DNA of 64,000 nucleotides from an uncultured Candidatus Altimarinota bacterium. GTDB taxonomy: Bacteria; Patescibacteriota; Gracilibacteria; BD1-5; UBA2023. The first letter of the stretch is position 1. The number at the start of each line of letters is the position of its first letter. The notes under the pieces were generated by a model. It was not told where the DNA came from, did not search any database, and saw only the letters and a list, made by a program, of their open reading frames with translations. The stretch spans positions 69 through 64,068 of the forward strand of contig CAVVTN010000007.1 of the NCBI GenBank assembly GCA_963751115.1, read 5' to 3'. Shown here one piece after another: positions 10,317-53,566 of this stretch. The position numbers and the translations under genes were made by a program.

Positions 10317-11499
10317 CGTATAATCTAAATCGAAGTGCAAAATTCAAAAGGAACAGTATGATAGAAGTGCTTACCCACTATCAACCGTTCCTATGAAACA
10401 GTATACACACTTTTCCCTAGAAGAAAGAGAAATTATTGGAGATCGTATTTCTGAATGAGTAAATCCTTTTAGGATAGCCAAGGAACTTGGTAGATCACCG
10501 TCTTCTATTACTCGGGAGATTGCCCGAAATAGTACGGTATATCCCAAAGCGAAGAATGGTCTCAAAGAAAAACAAAAAGAAGATTATGTCTATCGTCCTG
10601 GACGAGCGGATATGAAGTATCTCTCTCGTAAAAGCCAAGCAGGATGGAGAGCTCCACTCAAGAACCCAAGAGTATTTGAGTATGTTATCGAGAAACTACT
10701 CTCACCGGAGCGATGGAGTCCTGATATTATTGCCTGAATGTTAAAATTGGAATATCCGAATGACCCAAGTATGCGAATATGTCAGGAAACAATCTACTCA
10801 TTCGTATACACAAAAAAGTGAGAAGAGTTGAAACTTAAAGAATATCTTCTTCGGTCTCATCGAAAACGACGGAAACATTCTGGAAGAAAAACCAGACGTA
10901 CACTCATTCCAAACAGAATAGATATCTCCTTGAGATCAAAAGAAGTGGAAGATCGAGAAACGATCGGACACTGGGAATGAGACAGTATTGTTTGAGTAGG
11001 AATATGATCAGCTCTCCATACAGAACTAGAAAGAAAGAGTCGATTCCTCATGGTAAAAAAGATTCCAAGAAAAACAGCAGAATACACGAAACAAGCAATG
11101 ATAACACTCTTTAGTCCTTTACCAGCAATACTCAGAAAAACTTCAACGCTTGATAATGGATGCGAGTTTACTAAACATGGGGAATTTACCGAAACAATGA
11201 AGATGTTCATCTATTTCGCTCAACCTTATCATTCTTGGGAACGAGGAGGTAACGAAAATGCGAACGGAATGATTCGAAGATACTTCCCTAAGGGAACGAA
11301 TTTCGACAATATCACAGAGGCACAAATTCAACAAGTGGTAGATATTATCAACAACAGACCCCGAAGGATACTCGGATACAAAACAGCTTTACAGGTCTTC
11401 AATGAACACTTTCCCTTATCTGCCAATTAAATAATTCCTTTTATATATTTTCTTCTATTGAACTTTTCTTACATTTTGCACTTGCATTTAGAATCGAGG
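10317..11499 (+). mobile_element. IS30-family insertion sequence, copy 2 (1183 bp)
   Basis: Imperfect ~27-bp terminal inverted repeats (cgtataatctaaatcgaagtgcaaaat and the reverse complement of attttgcacttgcatttagaatcgagg). The element is flanked by a 3-bp direct repeat cca (10314-10316 and 11500-11502). Confidence 0.9.
10393..11430 (+). CDS. IS30-family DDE transposase (345 aa with TGA=Gly)
   Basis: Same protein as 33-1070, including GHWE-G(TGA)-D and DNGCEF. Track ORF 11050-11430 is its C-terminus. Confidence 0.9.
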
Positions 11500-44890: not shown

Positions 44891-46732
44891 ATGCAAACTA
44901 CACAAAAAATACAAAACAGGCAATCCAAGAAATATAAAGGTTTTACCCTCGTAGAACTCATAGTAGTAATAACCATCCTCGTCATTCTCGGAACCATAGC
45001 ATTCCTCAATCTCTGAGGATATTCCGCTTCTGCTCGTGACTCTTCTCGAGTAGCTGATATGACGAATATAAGAAAAGCCCTTGATGTCACCTACATCAAA
45101 ACAGGTTCCTATCCTACTCCTTCCAATGGTACCGGAATAACCTTCTCATGATGACTTGTCTGGACTCAAGGATCTATAGGAGATTCTGTTATGAATATCC
45201 TCTCTGCTACCAACCTTCAGTTCTCCAAGAAACTCACGGATCCAGCATATCCATCCATAGAATATTCTTACTCTCTTCTCAATAATAAAAAAGAATACCA
45301 GATAGCCAGTATCATGGAAGATCCCAATACGATAGCTTACAATCCCATCATCACTCCTGTCTCAGCTGCAGCCACTAACTTCACTGCCAATGTCCAAGGA
45401 AACTACAATGGTCTCCTAGCAACCGTATCTACCGGAACAACTACCTACTACCTTGCTCTCCCAAGTATTATCGCTCAGAATGTTTCCACTATCTCCTATA
45501 CAGAACTTACTAATCAAGCTACTCAATCTGGTAATCTGGTTCTGAATAATGCAACCAATCTCCCAGCTACCTATACCAACAATCCTACTACTCCCATAAC
45601 TACCACTACTCCTACCACTACTTTCAATGCTCTGAGTAACGCCAGTCAAACAACTGTAGGTTCTGGAATCGTTGCCTACACCACCACCGGATCTCTCACA
45701 ACAACAGGAGCAACCGCTCTCATGTCCAATCTCTACACTCTCTACAATTCCAGTAATCTCAACAACAACACCACTTCAGCTCCACAAGTTGCTACACTCA
45801 TCACTGGATGATCAGGAACTACCGCTCTCGTAAACACCTATAATGGATTCTTGAGTACGAGTGTATCATGACCAGCACTGAATACTCTTGCAGTAGCAAA
45901 TGCAGGAATCGTCGCAACAGGAGCTTGTCTCGAAACAGCCACCGGAGGATACTTTACTTTTGACTCCGCAACCAAAACTATTACAGCCTACAGTGCCTCT
46001 GGACCAAAAGATGTCATCATACCTTGTAAGATTGGATGAGTAGCGGTGAATGTTATTGGAGCACAAGCTTTTTCTTTTAAACAACTCACAAGCCTCTCAA
46101 TTCCCAATAGTATCACAAGTATTGGAGAATATGCTTTTAGATCTAATCTACTCACGAATCTTGTTATTCCAAGTAGCGTAACATATATTGGACGGGTTGC
46201 TTTTGATAGCAATAATCTCCCTGATAACCAAGCACTTATCTATGCCCGTACAGCAAGTGGATTAGAAAACACTACATCCCTCATAGGGTATGGTGGAGCG
46301 AATAAGTCTCCTGTTATTCCTAATAATGTCACAAGTATTGGAGATTCTGCTTTTTATAATCTTAATCTTACAGGCATAACTATTCCAAATAGTGTAACGA
46401 TTATTTTAGGACAGGCTTTTCAATACAATCAACTTACGAGTATAACAATTCCGAGTAGCGTCACAAGTATTGGAAGTAGTGCATTTATGAGTAATCCACT
46501 TACGAGTATAACAATTCCGAGTAGCGTCACAAGTATTGGAATTGGTACTTTTATGTATAATAATCTCACAAGCGTAACAATTCCTAGTAGTGTTACAAGT
46601 ATTTGATCAATGGCTTTTACTAATCAATATGGCTGAACGGGAAGTGTTGCTTTCGCTTCTGCCGGACAAAAAACGAGTTACTATAATGCGACCTATTTTG
46701 ATATGACGAAGTTTACTTCGGCTACACCGTAG
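44891..46732 (+). CDS. type IV pilin-like protein fused to BspA-type leucine-rich repeats (613 aa)
   Basis: Prepilin N-terminus KGFTLVELIVVITILVILGTIAF. Thr-rich linker. At least 7 repeats of IP.SVTSIG..AF. Frame verified codon by codon across 7 TGA. Confidence 0.8.
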
Positions 46733-46966
46733 TATGTACATCGTGACAGAGATTAGCCTATAAAGCTTTCTGAATCTCATTTATATAAAACTCCCCCAAT
46801 ATAATAATTGGAGGAGTTTTATATATTCTGATTACCCCATCATCATTTCATTTTCATCAATCTCTCGGAGAATTTTTCGAGTGACTACTCTGTATATAAG
46901 GAAGGGTCTGAATTTCGCAGATAGGATTCAGGATAACAAAGAAGAAAAAATCCTGATAAATGATTC

Positions 46967-47827
46967 TTACTTACTAAACACACTATACTTCAGCATATCA
47001 AAAAGTCGGGAACGATTTTCGCTGAAACTGATATTTTGTTTGCTTTTACCAACAGTACTAGAAGCTATAATAGATCGAATAGGAAGTGCAAATCCATCTG
47101 CACTGGATATATGATAATCGATGGGATTATTAGAAATATTGGAAAGTATTAAATAATTATTTTCATAGCTTCCGAGAAAACTGGTGATATTTTTGGTTCC
47201 TGCTGTCATCGTAGTAGTATCGCTTGATTTCTCAAATCCAGACTGAAGATTAGCACTTGGAGTATTTCCAAAACTCTTCATAAGTGAACCGATTCCAGCA
47301 ATCCCATAGGTTTTTCCCGTCGCATCATTTCCGATAATATTCCAGCCCAAATCTCCATTTTGTGTGACGACAAAAGTACTGGTTTTAATAATATCGGAAG
47401 TATTTTTATTGGGATTCTTGGCAGAACTCTGGATAGATATTCCTTTGTCATAAAAGAGGGGAATAATCTCGAAACTTCCTGGAGCGATCGTTCCAGTATA
47501 GCTGGTGTCGGATGCATGAAGTATACTTGTGATGCTCGTATTCTTATTTGTAGAAGTGATATTTACTTGGAGAAGTTGAGATTCTCCATCGGAATTTGTA
47601 ATTATATCAGAGAAACCTTCGCGATGATTGGAACTTTTGAGAAGAGTATATTCAAGAGCTCATTCGGCGCTCATATACGCAGAAATCCCATCTGAGAGAA
47701 AATGATTCATCCCATTTTCTACCACAAAGAGATTGAGAATTCCTGCGGAAAATATGGTTAAAAAAGCCGTCATAAGAATGGCAATAATAGTGGAGAATCC
47801 TTTTTTTTGAGTAGGGAAGTGCATCAT
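46967..47827 (-). CDS. pilin-like/minor pseudopilin (286 aa)
   Basis: KKGFSTIIAILMTAFLTIF N-terminus. Track ORFs 47660 and 46967 are in frame. An alternative upstream start at 47890 is possible. Confidence 0.55.
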
Positions 47828-47864
47828 TATTCTCGAATTATATATTAAATTTAGAAATATGTTT

Positions 47865-48515
47865 TTAATTTTGTTTGTATATTTTTTCACTAATCGTTGT
47901 TTCTATGCTCATATGAGTATTTTTTGCAATCTCACTATGAATCCCTGCATTGTTACTGATTCGAAGAGAAAGAATGATGGTAACTTTCCCTTCTTGTGAG
48001 AGATTTGTAATGGATGTACTCGGATTTCCAGAGATGAAAAACCGAATATTTTCGACACTCACTCGATTGTCTGAGAGAGCTTTTCGTGTATTGAAAATAT
48101 CTTCTATGCCCATATAACACTGCATTTTGATATCTTTTTGATCCGCTTCGCTACAGAGAATAGGTCATCCCACTAAACCATCTTTCATAGGATAATATTT
48201 ATTTCCTCCTTGAATAGCAAGAATACTATTTCCACTCCCTGTATAATTATTGGTTTTCAGAGAACTAGAGCCATTATAATAACTGAAATCGATTCATTTT
48301 TCACGGACATCAGTTGCGATTTTTTCGGTGATATTTCGAATATTTTCCTGTACGATTCGCATATCTTCCAGTCGTTTATTGACTTGTATGAGATTGCTAT
48401 ATATCACAAATACCGACAGCATAATAACCGAGAGAATAGTGATAGAAACTACGAGTTCTATGAGTGTAAACGCGTGCGACTTCGGTGGTAATTCCGTAAA
48501 AGATATTTTTTGCAT
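47865..48515 (-). CDS. pilin-like/minor pseudopilin (216 aa)
   Basis: SHAFTLIELVVSITILSVIM prepilin-like N-terminus, with Ala at position -1. Joined to track ORF 47865 across 2 TGA. Confidence 0.6.
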
Positions 48516-48685
48516 ATACTATATTATTTATAATCTAAAGATGTATTCTCTCATTTCCTACGGCACTCGCTTTTATCTATTATCTATACATAGAGAGGAA
48601 ATGCACTCAAACAATCCTCGGTGCATTCGAGTAATATATCTTGAGATTACCTGAGGAAATGGAGCATAAAAAGAAAGAGTGAGAA

Positions 48686-49339
48686 TTATTGGCTTTTCCA
48701 GTCGGTGATAATCGTGCTCATACTAGATATACGATATCATTTATTGAAACTGACAAAGAAAACTTCTACTTTGTATCCACGTTCCACGGGGATAGAAGTA
48801 TTGGTTTGAGTATTTTTGGTTATGAGAGGTTCGATCAATATAAAAGATGCAAAATTCGTTTTTTCATTTCCATTTGCACAATTATGAGAATATCGACCGA
48901 GCGTATCGATACAGAGACGAATAGGAGAATTGGTTTTTTGAAATTCTTGAGTAATAACTGTTTGAGAAAGAGACAGCCCAGAAAGTTTTTCTATATGAAT
49001 GAGCTTATTTCCACTAAAATTATTTGTGACAGTGTAATAATTATTTGCCTGCAATGTTTTACTGAGTTCGGTTGGTGATTTCGCGAGTTCTATAGAATTC
49101 CAAGAACGAAATTGTGCCCAGTTGGTATCACGAAGATTTTTCAAAAGCTCTATCTGCTCTCGCATAATATTTGCACCGATAATCTCGTCTCTGGAGCGAA
49201 TAGAGGCATTACTGGCACTATCCACGAGCAGATAAGCTCCGAGAAATCCGAGTGTGAAAACAATAATACCAACCATAAGTTCCAGAACGGTAAATCATTT
49301 TCTATTTTGCGAACGAGAGAAGAATTGTGAATATTTCAT
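48686..49339 (-). CDS. pilin-like/minor pseudopilin (217 aa)
   Basis: MKYSQFFSRSQNRK-G(TGA)-FTVLELMVGIIVF. The cleavage-site Gly is encoded by TGA. Confidence 0.65.
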
Positions 49340-49362
49340 GATAATGAGAAGGTTACAAAAGG

Positions 49363-49884
49363 TTATTTTTCTATTTTGATAGTTCGATACATTGTTCCAG
49401 TTGTTGCCGTTTGCCAACCGATTCCAAGGTTGAAAGTACTTCCTGTTTCAGTTGGACTGGTATATATTTCCATCTCTCCTCGTGGTGCTATAAACTCTAT
49501 AAGTATATTATTTTTTGGCAAAGTATTAATATTTACACCATCTTCCAGAGAAATGATTTTAATGATTTTTGCATTGGCATTTTCTGTAAATGCGTGTGTT
49601 CCTGGAAGGAAAGCAAACATACTAATAGTATGTGATCATTTCTCAAACAGAATTCCCATATTTGCATTCTTTGTCGTCCCGGGAAAGAGTTGTCCATTTT
49701 GTGAAAGAAGTCTGGCATTTTCCATAGTTTGGTGGATTTTTTCTGCACTGATTCGTACTCGAGAAAGTCTACTATAATAGTCGTATGGAACATAGGATCC
49801 TGCAAAAAGAATACCAATAATCGTCATAACGACCATAAGTTCTATGAGAGTAAATCCAGATGTATTTCGAATAGGATGGAACAT
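49363..49884 (-). CDS. prepilin-type N-terminal methylation-domain protein (GspH/FimT-like, 173 aa)
   Basis: SGFTLIELMVVMTIIGIL N-terminus. Track ORFs 49636 and 49363 are in frame. Confidence 0.7.
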
Positions 49885-49980: not shown

Positions 49981-50005
49981 ATAAAAAACAAAACTAAAAT
50001 TTGCT
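49981..50005 (+). repeat. 25-bp direct repeat bounding the DGR cassette (left copy)
   Basis: ataaaaaacaaaactaaaatttgct is identical to 53066-53090. Similarity continues imperfectly for about 20 nt. Confidence 0.8.
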
Positions 50006-50098
50006 ATTATTTTATCTCTCTATACAATCTTACAAACATAAATTCAAATATAAATTTTAATCTTCTTGACATAACTAAAATCCCTCTAATATGCCCAT

Positions 50099-50144
50099 AG
50101 CAACCAGCAACCAGCAACCAGCAACCAGCAACCAGCAACCAGCA
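50099..50144 (+). repeat. heptanucleotide tandem repeat (AGCAACC) x 6.5
   Basis: A perfect 7-nt periodicity can be read directly, about 165 nt upstream of the DGR target start. Confidence 0.9.
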
Positions 50145-50310
50145 TACAATAGACTCGTCTTAAGAAACGCTTAACTATCGTATTGTTCCTGAGTAATAAA
50201 TTTACTAAAAGTAAAAAATATAGTTTGACAAGAAAAATATTTGACAAATTCATATAATCTATAGTATAGTCAGAGTAGTAAGTAATTATTCTTAACTCTC
50301 ATATAATTAT

Positions 50311-51063
50311 ATGAACAATCAATCCGCTATACGACGAGATATCGCTCTTGAGAAATCTCGTAATGTTCGAAATAGAATCCGTAACTGACGAGAAGTTTCC
50401 TCAAAACAAGTTGAAGAAGTAAAAATATCGGTAACAACCACTCTTGACCAACCTCTTGAATTTATCGAATTTCCTGCTCTAAAAGTTGCTCGTCTCCCAC
50501 TCTGACCGACCAAATCTCACATCGATGGACTCGTGCAAGCAGGAAAACTCGATGCGAACAATATCTTCGTTGGCAAGGAAGCATGGAAGAATGCTGAAAT
50601 CAATAAGGAAGTTCCACAGGTATTCGGCTACACGATTGCAAATGACCAAGAACTTGCCAGAGTTATAACCGACAAGAAGGTACTCGATGCGGCAAGAAAG
50701 GAAGTAGAAGTATCAGGAACTTTCCCAACTATCTACGTTCTAAATCACGAGGCACGACTTGCTCATGCAGCTTATCTCAGAGGACGTCTGCCAACTCAGG
50801 AAGAGCAGAAGAGTATTTGGGATAAACTTCCAGGAGCAAATGTTCTTGAGAAAGCAACAGGTGCTGGTATTCCTTTCGCGGGCTACTTCAGTGCCGGCAA
50901 CCGTAAGTTCTGCTATGTCGGTGATTGGGCGTACTTGATGTCCTCGTCCAAGAATGACGGCGGCTTCTTCGAGGGCCTCAAGGCGTACCGTGACGACCGT
51001 GAGGCTGTCGAGTACTGAGATTTCCCTGAGCATGGGTTTTCTTCTCTCGTTGTTTTTGGATAA
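50311..51063 (+). CDS. DGR target (variable) protein with C-terminal lectin-like VR region (250 aa)
   Basis: ATG 50311 is in frame with track ORF 50533 across 2 TGA. The gene continues past TGA 51016 to TAA 51061. The last ~60 codons are the VR copy of the TR. Confidence 0.8.
50881..51059 (+). repeat. DGR variable repeat (VR)
   Basis: 179 nt align without gaps to 51669-51847. There are 18 differences, 17 of them where the TR has A. Confidence 0.9.
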
Positions 51064-51166
51064 AATTGACTCTTTGTTCTCTTTGTCTCTTTAGAACTTT
51101 TTACTTTGAACAATACGATGCCACTATCCAAGTTAGGGGCATTTTATTTCGCGTTCAAACTATCCT

Positions 51167-51520
51167 ATGATTTACGAAGGACTTCCAATTTACAAAGCAA
51201 CATACGATTTTCTTCTCGCTGCATTCACCTTCTCAAGGTCGTTTAGTCGAGAGTACAAGTACACCATCTGACAAGAGCTCAAGAATGAGACGATTCAACT
51301 TCTCCTCTCTGTTTACCGAGCGAACAGTTCGCAGAAAAACCGATACACTTTCCTTGAAGATGCGAAGGTACATCTCGAAACCGTTCGCTTGCTTCTTCGT
51401 CTGACAAAAGACTTAAAACAGATTCCACTCAAAGACTTTGTATCCCTTCTCGAACAAGTTGAGGGTATCTCGAAACAGCTCGCTGGTTGGCAGCAGAAGA
51501 CAGGGAAGTCAGAGTTTTAG
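51167..51520 (+). CDS. avd: Avd (four-helix-bundle DGR accessory protein, 117 aa)
   Basis: PIYKATYDFLL...REYKYTI-G(TGA)-QELKNE resembles the Avd/23S-IVS family. It sits between VR and TR. Confidence 0.8.
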
Positions 51521-51668
51521 GAATATGGGGAGGGGTCAGAATTGCTTTTTCCAAGGACTAAGCGAGCGTGCCTAATTTTTATCGGGAGTACACTCGGTAC
51601 ACCGAGTATAGAAGTTTTTTTATCCGTATCTTCGGATAAAAAACATACAAGATGCTCCTTTGCGACCA

Positions 51669-51847
51669 GGCTACTTCAATGCCGACAACCGTAAGTTCTA
51701 CAATGTCGGTGATTGGGCGTACTTGATGTCCTCGTCCAAGAATGACGACGGCAACTTCAAGAGCCTCAAAGCGAACCGTGACAACCGTGAGGCTGACGAG
51801 AACTGGAATAACCCTGAGCATGGGTTTTCTTCTCTCGTTGTTTTTGG
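51669..51847 (+). repeat. DGR template repeat (TR)
   Basis: Rich in AAC/AAT codons. It is invariant relative to VR except at adenines, and lies 25 nt upstream of the RT start. Confidence 0.9.
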
Positions 51848-51872
51848 TGAAAAATCTCATATTCCTAAAACT

Positions 51873-53063
51873 ATGATTTCCCTCGAAGATATATTTCTCG
51901 CCTATTATGATTGTCGTAGAAACAAGCGCAATTCTCCAAATGCCATTGCATTCGAGCTTCACTATGAGTCCGAATGTATAAAGCTCTACGATGAGATTTA
52001 CTCACGTACCTATAAACCGCTCCCAGGGACGGCATTTATCGTCCGTGATCCAGTACAGCGCGAGATCTTCGCTTCCGATTTTCGAGATCGTGTCGTTCAT
52101 CATTTGGTCATTCGCAAGATCGAGCTCTTTCTTGATCGAATACTGATCCATGATTCATATAGTGCACGCGTATGAAAGGGAACATACTACGGAGTAAAGC
52201 AGGTATCCAGATTCGTGCGGGCTTGTTCAAATAATTATACACAGGGCGCATATATTCTCAAGCTTGATATATCAGGATTTTTTATGGGTATCAATCGGGA
52301 ATTACTACTCCAAAAAATTCATCGTCTGCTCGACCGCTTCCTTCCCGAAGGCGAGAACGAAGTCTACGGCTTTCTCATCGAAACGCTTATCCGTCGGGAT
52401 ATCACGAAAGATTGTCAGATCAAAGGAAAGCGAACTGATTGGATCGGACTCCCGAAAACCAAGAGTCTTTTTTACAGTGTTCCATGAACAGGGATTCCAA
52501 TAGGAAACCTCACGAGCCAGATTTTTGCAAATCTTTATCTTCACGAGCTCGATACATTTATCAAGAAAGAACTAAAAGTCCAATACTACGGGCGATATGT
52601 GGATGATTTTGTACTTATTCATCCAGACAAAGACTATTTACGGAGCGTTATTCCGAAGATTTCCGAATTTCTCGAAACCAAGCTTTTTCTGACGCTCCAT
52701 CCGAAGAAAATATATTTTCAGCACTATACAAAATGAGTTTTATTTCTCGGTGTTTATATAAAACCTCATCGACTCTACATAGGAAATCGCACGAAGGGGA
52801 ATTTTTATGCGTGTATCAAGGAGATAAATAAAATATTAGAGCAACTTGAATCTGAAGCAAAACTTCCTGATAAACAAACATTGAAAGATATTATTTCTCG
52901 AGTTAATTCCTATCTCTGAATGATGGGAACTTATAATACCTATCGTATTCGTAAAAAGATGCTTATAGATCTTTTTAGAGGAAATTTTTGAGAATATTTC
53001 TCTGTTTCAGGAAAGTATCAGAAAATCATCCTAAGAAAAGAAATAGTAAGAGAAGAAATATAA
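51873..53063 (+). CDS. DGR-type reverse transcriptase (396 aa)
   Basis: IPIGNLTSQIFANLYL, RYVDDFVLI (YxDD) and G(TGA)-VLFLGVYI motifs. Frame verified through 6 TGA to TAA 53061. Confidence 0.9.
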
Positions 53064-53065
53064 AT

Positions 53066-53090
53066 ATAAAAAACAAAACTAAAATTTGCT
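53066..53090 (+). repeat. 25-bp direct repeat bounding the DGR cassette (right copy)
   Basis: Identical to 49981-50005. It lies just upstream of rplS. Confidence 0.8.
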
Positions 53091-53520: not shown

Positions 53521-53529
53521 AACCTATAA

Positions 53530-53566
53530 AAAACACATACTGAGTTTTCTCAGTATGTGTTTTTTG
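53530..53566 (+). terminator. rho-independent terminator
   Basis: aaacacatactgag-ttttc-tcagtatgtgttt followed by a T run. Confidence 0.7.

Follow-up and report, generated by a model that had tools for sequence, protein, structure and literature searches.

A chromosomal diversity-generating retroelement of a TGA-recoded Gracilibacteria bacterium with a structured, possibly permuted RNA upstream of its template repeat

Where does a diversity-generating retroelement (DGR) keep its cis-acting RNA if only 25 nucleotides (nt) separate its template repeat from the reverse transcriptase gene? This question is raised by a locus in contig CAVVTN010000007.1 of an uncultured bacterium of the Gracilibacteria lineage, analysed here as a stretch of 64,000 nt (hereafter the window). 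The locus comprises, on the + strand to which the coordinates of all its features refer, a target gene ending in a variable repeat (VR), the gene avd, a template repeat (TR) and a reverse transcriptase (RT) gene, in this order. DGRs are common among Candidate Phyla Radiation (CPR) members, so that a DGR in this host is expected biology. To our knowledge, the RNA of the Bordetella phage DGR is the only DGR RNA that is understood structurally, and published surveys have presumed the Bordetella layout. We propose that the locus is a chromosomal DGR of a Gracilibacteria bacterium that reads TGA as glycine, equipped with a rearranged, permuted cis-acting RNA, and we assign a probability of roughly 80% to this reading. 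The DGR itself is of a known kind; it is a variant with respect to its rearranged cis-RNA, its genetic code 25 and its clear insertion junctions.

The TR (51669-51847) and the VR (50881-51059, the final 60 codons of the target gene) align without gaps over 179 nt and differ at 18 positions (9 A>G, 8 A>T and 1 G>A), 17 of which are adenines in the TR. Given that adenine makes up 44 of the 179 TR positions, the probability of at least 17 of 18 differences falling on adenines is 6e-10. The TR is non-coding, while the VR forms the 3' end of the 250-aa target open reading frame (ORF) in code 25. Adenines of the TR occupy codon positions 1-2 in 43 of 44 cases, and the mutated adenines in 16 of 17; among the changed VR codons, 15 are nonsynonymous and 1 is synonymous. 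The original prediction, made from the sequence alone and without database searches, had described a complete DGR with exactly this alignment and with a preference for AAC, AAT and GAC codons, which are indeed the codons chiefly altered (7, 3 and 3, respectively). It had also noted an identical 3' stretch of 34 nt, likened to an initiation of mutagenic homology (IMH) region. The identity extends in fact over 36 nt (51812-51847 in the TR); the likeness to an IMH is only loose, because VR and TR do not differ at their 3' ends, which leaves no IMH/IMH* distinction within the repeat. A third copy of the repeat was not found within the window. A reading of the TR in frame with the RT was considered as well, and is not conserved among relatives.

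The RT gene (51873-53063, 396 aa) encodes the predicted YVDD motif together with IGNLTSQ, which corresponds to the DGR-type motif 4 (I/LGxxxSQ). Its product matches RVT_1, and the closest solved structure is the Bordetella RT, bRT (8ub7, E=1e-26), with a group II intron RT next (E=4e-12). Homologues at ~50-58% identity number in the thousands and occur in Gracilibacteria and Bacteroidota. Nearly all relatives at 42-64% identity adjoin A-biased TR/VR pairs, and ~35 loci of the fetched relatives hold a TR/VR pair in which adenines account for at least 70% of the mismatches; relatives of the RT were not found in IMG/VR. The gene avd (51167-51520, 117 aa, stop codon TAG at 51518-51520) matches the Pfam family PF22296 (bAvd) at 54.7 bits, above the cut-off of 40 bits, and NF033474 at 54.3 bits (E=1.4e-14), under the curated cut-off of 80 bits. 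The target gene (50311-51063) encodes 250 aa and ends with TAA at 51061-51063. Gene order, RT type and the presence of Avd thus agree with what had been predicted, and together with the adenine-specific repeat pair and the position of the VR at the end of an ORF they support a complete DGR.

A point missing from the prediction is the genetic code, which is needed to read all three genes. In-frame TGA codons are present in the target (3; codons 26, 65 and 236), in avd (1; codon 35) and in the RT (5), and the genes stay open only with TGA read as sense; under code 11 the ORFs of the cassette region are fragments, and the standard code would end the target at 51016-51018, inside the VR. Across the window, ORFs of at least 100 aa total 15,987 aa under code 11 vs 39,805 aa under code 25. 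Codons 205 and 288 of the RT, both TGA, align with conserved glycines of Bordetella bRT, which argues for TGA=Gly (code 25) and not for Trp. These alignments point to a host that reads TGA as glycine. The DnaA protein encoded in the window shares 97% identity with its counterpart in Candidatus Gracilibacteria bacterium CG2_30_37 and ~92% with those of other Gracilibacteria; going by sequence, the host is a Candidatus Gracilibacteria bacterium.

Directly 5' of the TR lies a structured RNA module of ~130 nt (51531-51661), which was recognized by covariation and is described by a covariance model, R1. It begins with the P1 stem-loop (P1, 51533-51537 / 51569-51573; P1a, 51542-51551 / 51556-51565), continues with a single-stranded linker that carries an invariant ATCG at 51581-51584, and closes with P2 (51585-51590 / 51653-51658), the 3' strand of which ends 10 nt before the TR. 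P2 is built around the short stem-loop P2a (51592-51596 / 51602-51606), an A-rich strand (AAUAAAAGAU) and the long stem-loop P2b (51616-51625 / 51634-51643). In an alignment of 11 sequences of the window's sub-clade (alignment A4), RNAalifold yields 58 pairs, 44 of them with compensatory change. Here, 95.8% of cells are paired, vs 69.9% in shuffles and 42-50% with the partners slid, and the observed values were reached by 0 of 500 shuffles on any of five measures. Model R1 finds the module in 15 further loci outside its building set (E 7e-13 to 8e-4), always on the RT strand and ending 1-10 nt before the TR wherever a TR/VR pair was detected. In the set of 27 sequences, 94.4% of cells are paired vs 61% in shuffles, and 31 of 36 pairs are compensatory. 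The minimum free energy fold of the window RNA recovers these helices, including the linker duplex described below, with z=-7.3. Rfam holds no family matching the module at gathering score (two tRNAs are the only such matches in the window, and a match to RAGATH-26 at E<=10 is spurious), and searches of the literature turned up no account of a module upstream of the TR. In IMG/VR, 63 matches to a degenerate motif amount to chance, leaving one marginal covariance-model match.

The linker connects this module to the far end of the TR. Its strand AUUUUU (51575-51580), followed by the invariant A 51581, pairs with AAAAAU (51850-51855), which starts 2 nt past the TR; the former is a candidate primer-side strand and the latter a candidate template-side strand. 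At one register 62 of 66 cells are paired, vs 21-44 at others, a value matched by 0 of 2000 permutations; compensatory change is seen at three positions, and the duplex is nested and not a pseudoknot. In more distant members the linker sequences are unrelated, yet still complement the TR 3' boundary, as in the pairs UCUAGUUC/GAACUGGA, CUAGUCC/GGACUGG and AUAAGU/ACUUAU of other subgroups and in a 14-bp duplex of locus L028.

A 26-nt inverted repeat brackets the TR and underlies a 23-bp helix, P0, which encloses the module and the TR as one domain. The upstream arm of P0 (51504-51526) holds the avd stop codon, and the downstream arm (51859-51881) holds the RT start codon (51873-51875), beginning at position 15 of 23. 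The helix of the window has z=14.7. Its 23 columns comprise 22 counted pairs, with 98.3% paired and 15 with compensatory change, and the sense strand is marked by G-U pairs. All 12 sub-clade loci examined (the window and 11 others) have P0, with differing arm sequences and z from 8 to 15 vs shuffles; each of the 11 loci checked for codon placement has the avd stop within the upstream arm and, in the downstream arm, the RT AUG at position 15. P0 is missing from the other RT relatives tested, which have a detected TR and a gap of 37-177 nt between TR and RT. With this arrangement, RT initiation may be coupled to avd termination, or the RNA may switch between states as mRNA and as template.

The same upstream RNA module is found in DGRs labelled as Absconditabacterales or 'Peribacteria' (L008-L011, L036, L038-L040). 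These loci have no room for avd between VR and module and no P0, and they carry a GC-rich hairpin after the TR.

The RNA of the Bordetella phage DGR consists of 20 nt of avd, the TR and a spacer (Sp) of 140 nt (bioRxiv 10.1101/2023.10.23.563531). In order, the Sp contains an Avd-binding stem-loop; a primer strand that pairs with the 3' part of the TR; the cPRT Stop strand, whose partner is the segment of avd immediately 5' of the TR; a short stem-loop; A-minor adenosines with a single-stranded thumb ring; and a long RT-binding stem-loop (bioRxiv 10.1101/2023.10.23.563531). Based on the established DGR mechanism, we hypothesize that the RT together with Avd would reverse-transcribe the TR-containing RNA and misincorporate opposite adenines. 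The resulting cDNA would replace the VR, so that a small protein without a Pfam match would have its last ~60 residues rewritten; this protein may have a C-type-lectin-like C-terminal domain. The upstream module may do the work of the Bordetella spacer in circularly permuted form. The duplex of linker and TR 3' edge would be the template:primer duplex, with priming possibly from the invariant A 51581, P2 would be the cPRT Stop duplex, and P0 would stand in for the covalent connection of the TR 3' end to the first stem-loop. In addition, P0 would make translation of the RT depend on ribosomes terminating at avd, and in this way a single RNA may alternate between serving as mRNA and serving as template.

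This model may be extended beyond the window. In the wider form, a DGR clade (Gracilibacteria, Absconditabacterales and other uncultured lineages) would use a circularly permuted DGR RNA, its module 5' of the TR reaching the TR 3' end by long-range pairing; the 23-bp helix of the sub-clade would tie avd termination to RT initiation as a messenger/template toggle; and the cassette would be an insertable unit with a duplicated 25-nt core. We consider the odds of this combined proposal to be about even.

A different view of the RNA would be that the module and P0 are real and serve gene expression only, as avd-RT coupler, mRNA stabiliser or attenuator, with priming accomplished via other elements. 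It has some appeal, as P0 spans the avd stop and the RT start in every locus checked (11/11), is absent in other clade members that keep the module, and is accompanied by a hairpin with a U-run upstream of avd. This hairpin (51116-51149, between target and avd) varies in sequence between loci while its pairing is kept; its stems are compensatory by inspection (alignment columns ~114-150), not by formal count, and it may be a terminator or the 5' stem of an avd-TR-RT transcript. A role confined to expression leaves unexplained why the linker pairs to the TR 3' boundary with unrelated sequences across subgroups, and it has to contend with a module that ends 1-10 nt before the TR in every match locus with a detected TR/VR pair and with an order of elements that mirrors the Bordetella spacer. 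We regard it as rather unlikely.

It is also conceivable that the DGR is a fossil, its cassette intact in sequence and no longer diversifying, and that the differences between TR and VR stem from past activity. Three ORFs that are intact despite 9 in-frame TGA codons read as sense speak against this, as do the confinement of TR adenines to codon positions 1-2 (43/44), the nonsynonymous nature of 15 of 16 changed codons, and cis RNA helices that are perfectly kept in the window. Even with the rarity of the target family, the one non-adenine difference, and the finding of no second contig with the same element in look-ups by target homologues and by the L19 protein counted in its favour, a fossil appears distinctly improbable. 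An ordinary segmental duplication next to an unrelated retron, group II intron or defence RT is scarcely credible: the sub-threshold NCBIfam matches to group II, Drt and retron models that might suggest it are far below cut-offs, the best solved RT match is bRT, the substitutions are adenine-specific (P=6e-10), an Avd gene is present, and Rfam scans of window and region detected no intron RNA or retron msr/msd family.

Several observations weigh against the interpretation of the locus as an active DGR with a permuted cis-acting RNA. The functions proposed for the module would hold by analogy with Bordetella, and in Bordetella itself compensatory mutations in the Stop duplex failed to bring activity back (bioRxiv 10.1101/2023.10.23.563531), so that helix formation alone may not be function. 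The 11-27 sequences used for covariation are related, and an alignment fitted to a model is biased towards structure. P0 is confined to one sub-clade, and other members of the clade do without it. One of the 18 differences between TR and VR lies outside adenines. Current activity of this particular element would follow from its intact genes only, and the fold of the target is unproven (see below).

The lone non-adenine difference (TR G51806, VR A51018) turns TGG into TGA. In the window this VR codon reads as glycine; with the standard code it would terminate the target 15 codons early. In locus L003 this G is replaced by T. In recoded relatives, an in-frame TGA of the TR often appears as TGG or TGT in the VR, in L066 at the homologous codon, and this was never seen in the non-recoded relatives examined. 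This pattern was recorded in the TRs and VRs of L003, L009, L011, L066 and L069, and TGA is retained in L010, L040 and L064. TGA thus acts as a codon that can be diversified, and a reassigned stop codon widens the diversification alphabet (Gly, Trp, Cys). The idea that non-adenine G>A changes are generally TGG>TGA changes in recoded hosts was rejected, as this direction is seen only in the window. The TRs of relatives alternate between TGG and TGA at the codon in question, and the difference in the window may have arisen as an error beside mutated adenines, or by TGA in the TR having later become TGG.

The DGR is part of a 3,060-bp cassette that is bracketed by an exact 25-nt direct repeat, ATAAAAAACAAAACTAAAATTTGCT, with the left copy at 49981-50005 and the right copy at 53066-53090; these are the only two copies in the window. 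From the right copy onward the window is collinear with two empty sites, L070 (4400-4445) and L063 (4447-4485), in the region upstream of rplS. Both have a single copy of the 25-nt core and a pilin gene adjoining rplS, and no cassette. Homology of the window to the empty sites breaks exactly at the core. L070 encodes an L19 protein identical to that of the window and is 87-95% identical to the window at the nucleotide level, and L063 is more distant; a second copy of the element was sought via the identical L19 protein, and the empty site was found instead. No recombinase is encoded in the cassette, and flanking direct repeats are absent at 7 other cassettes checked. To judge from these junctions, the cassette is an insertion flanked by a 25-nt duplication, and the empty sites show that such a cassette can be moved or lost whole.

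The cassette is chromosomal. Type IV pilin-like genes form a cluster on one side of it, and rplS, closely followed by dnaA, is on the other. The pilin-like cluster (44891-49884, N_methyl motif) includes a 613-aa pilin-like protein with BspA-type leucine-rich repeats. In L063 a DGR sits at the opposite end of the homologous pilin cluster, and L070 has a Fib_succ_major gene there, which suggests a recurrent association of such clusters with DGR or Fib_succ_major genes. A bidirectional terminator-like hairpin with a perfect stem of 17-18 bp (53527-53566) is located past rplS. At the other end of the window, two inverted copies of 1,139 bp (8-1146 on the - strand and 10317-11455 on the + strand) are 99.9% identical; each encodes a transposase-like protein of 345 aa, and the ~9 kb between them include a large helicase-like ORF.

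In its 5' non-coding part (50006-50310), which is missing from the empty sites, the cassette contains a promoter-like site, TTGACA-18-TATAGT (50241-50270), that matches the sigma-70 consensus at 11 of 12 positions. A heptamer tandem repeat (AGCAACC/AACCAGC, ~6.5 copies, 50099-50147) is found ~100 nt upstream of this site. On the other side of the target gene, a pyrimidine-rich block, GACTCTTTG..CTTTGTCTCTTT (= CGACTCTTTG..CTTTGWCTCTTT), occupies 51068-51092. Its columns are invariant in 9 cassettes with differing VRs, and it is located directly 3' of the VR stop codon in all sub-clade cassettes, making it a candidate VR-side recognition element. The block overlaps a weak hairpin (51076-51097) which the original prediction had placed after the VR, and which did not hold up: it does not stand out from shuffles (z=0.6), and relatives do not keep its stem.

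The target protein has no Pfam or NCBIfam match, and none in Pfam even at E<=5. Among 5.8 billion proteins only ~10 homologues were found, and cross-species comparison displays a conserved N-terminal part of ~190 aa followed by a hypervariable part, the last ~60 aa. JGI metagenomes and IMG/VR contain no relatives of the target, and the family is known from few contigs of ENA, Logan and NCBI. A groundwater contig (L068) carries tandem paralogues of the target family at 559-1346 and 2218-2993, with ~70% identity and no TR in reach. A structure model (AF2) was made for a proxy, P0002, a relative 81% identical to the target of the window; the model has a pTM of 0.70 and a pLDDT of 69, with a weak C-terminus. 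Foldseek against the PDB gave nothing below E=0.39, with EgtB and formylglycine-generating enzyme (FGE) as weak top matches. Both are enzymes with lectin-like folds. The top structural match in BFVD is a phage Fib_succ_major protein (E=0.11, not significant), and a profile search of the target against PDB sequences gave no match. By hhalign, the VR is aligned end to end with Fib_succ_major-type VR domains from DGRs of RT relatives (E=0.0028, probability 11%), with GYF...SSS...W...GFS as shared pattern. With no significant Foldseek match and this low probability the fold stays unproven; a C-type-lectin-like C-terminal domain is plausible.

A natural permuted RNA would provide an independent test of which elements of a DGR RNA are essential, namely primer duplex, stop duplex and protein grapples. 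A published survey of 278 DGRs was confined to the 40 nt upstream and the 100 nt downstream of each TR, and about one quarter of its Avd-containing DGRs were without the expected downstream elements; an upstream module could account for these. Permuted RNAs may also offer compact designs for engineered DGR mutagenesis, and the helix of avd stop and RT start suggests how the RNA of a retroelement might be split between translation and templating.

The closest known system is the DGR of Bordetella phage BPP-1 (mtd-avd-TR-Sp-brt; PDB 8ub7 series). It shares with the window the gene order target(VR)-avd-TR-RT, the adenine-specific mismatches, Avd, and an RT with the motifs I/LGxxxSQ and YxDD. The RNAs are alike in topology, as supported by covariation, with one duplex at the 3' edge of the TR and another abutting its 5' edge, and both present a stem-loop, a primer-like strand, a stop-like strand, a short stem-loop, an A-rich single strand and a long stem-loop in succession. 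Unlike in Bordetella, the structured RNA of the window lies 5' of the TR, and 25 nt between TR and RT contrast with the 140-nt spacer 3' of the Bordetella TR; the window has an extra 23-bp helix in which the avd stop is paired with the RT start, it has no IMH/IMH* difference and no significant hairpin after the VR, and its element is chromosomal, in a host using code 25, whereas BPP-1 is phage-borne, with low identity between the two RTs.

DGRs of CPR bacteria were reportedly described by Paul et al. in 2017. They are also mentioned in the preprint by Handa et al. (bioRxiv 10.1101/2023.10.23.563531). The window resembles them in the small-genome CPR host, the chromosomal location, the presence of Avd and the small target with a C-terminal VR; on the other hand, the papers searched contain no description of the upstream module, of P0, of TGA codon use or of insertion junctions like those in the window. 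A further comparison is given by the Fib_succ_major (PF09603) and Lcl_C (PF07603) targets of Bacteroidota DGRs and related ones, which are diversified by relatives of the RT at 45-53% identity. The target of the window, in contrast, has no Pfam match, and its N-terminal ~130 aa are unrelated to anything known.

With respect to P0, a parallel outside the DGRs is the 'Min Jou' interaction between coat and replicase genes of phage MS2, a long-range pairing with an upstream translated region that sequesters a downstream start codon. In the window, too, a start codon, that of the RT, is predicted to be paired with an upstream translated region, and by analogy upstream translation could open the RT start. 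Unlike in MS2, the upstream partner in the window is the region of the avd stop, ~350 nt away, and the loop enclosed by the pairing is the template for reverse transcription.

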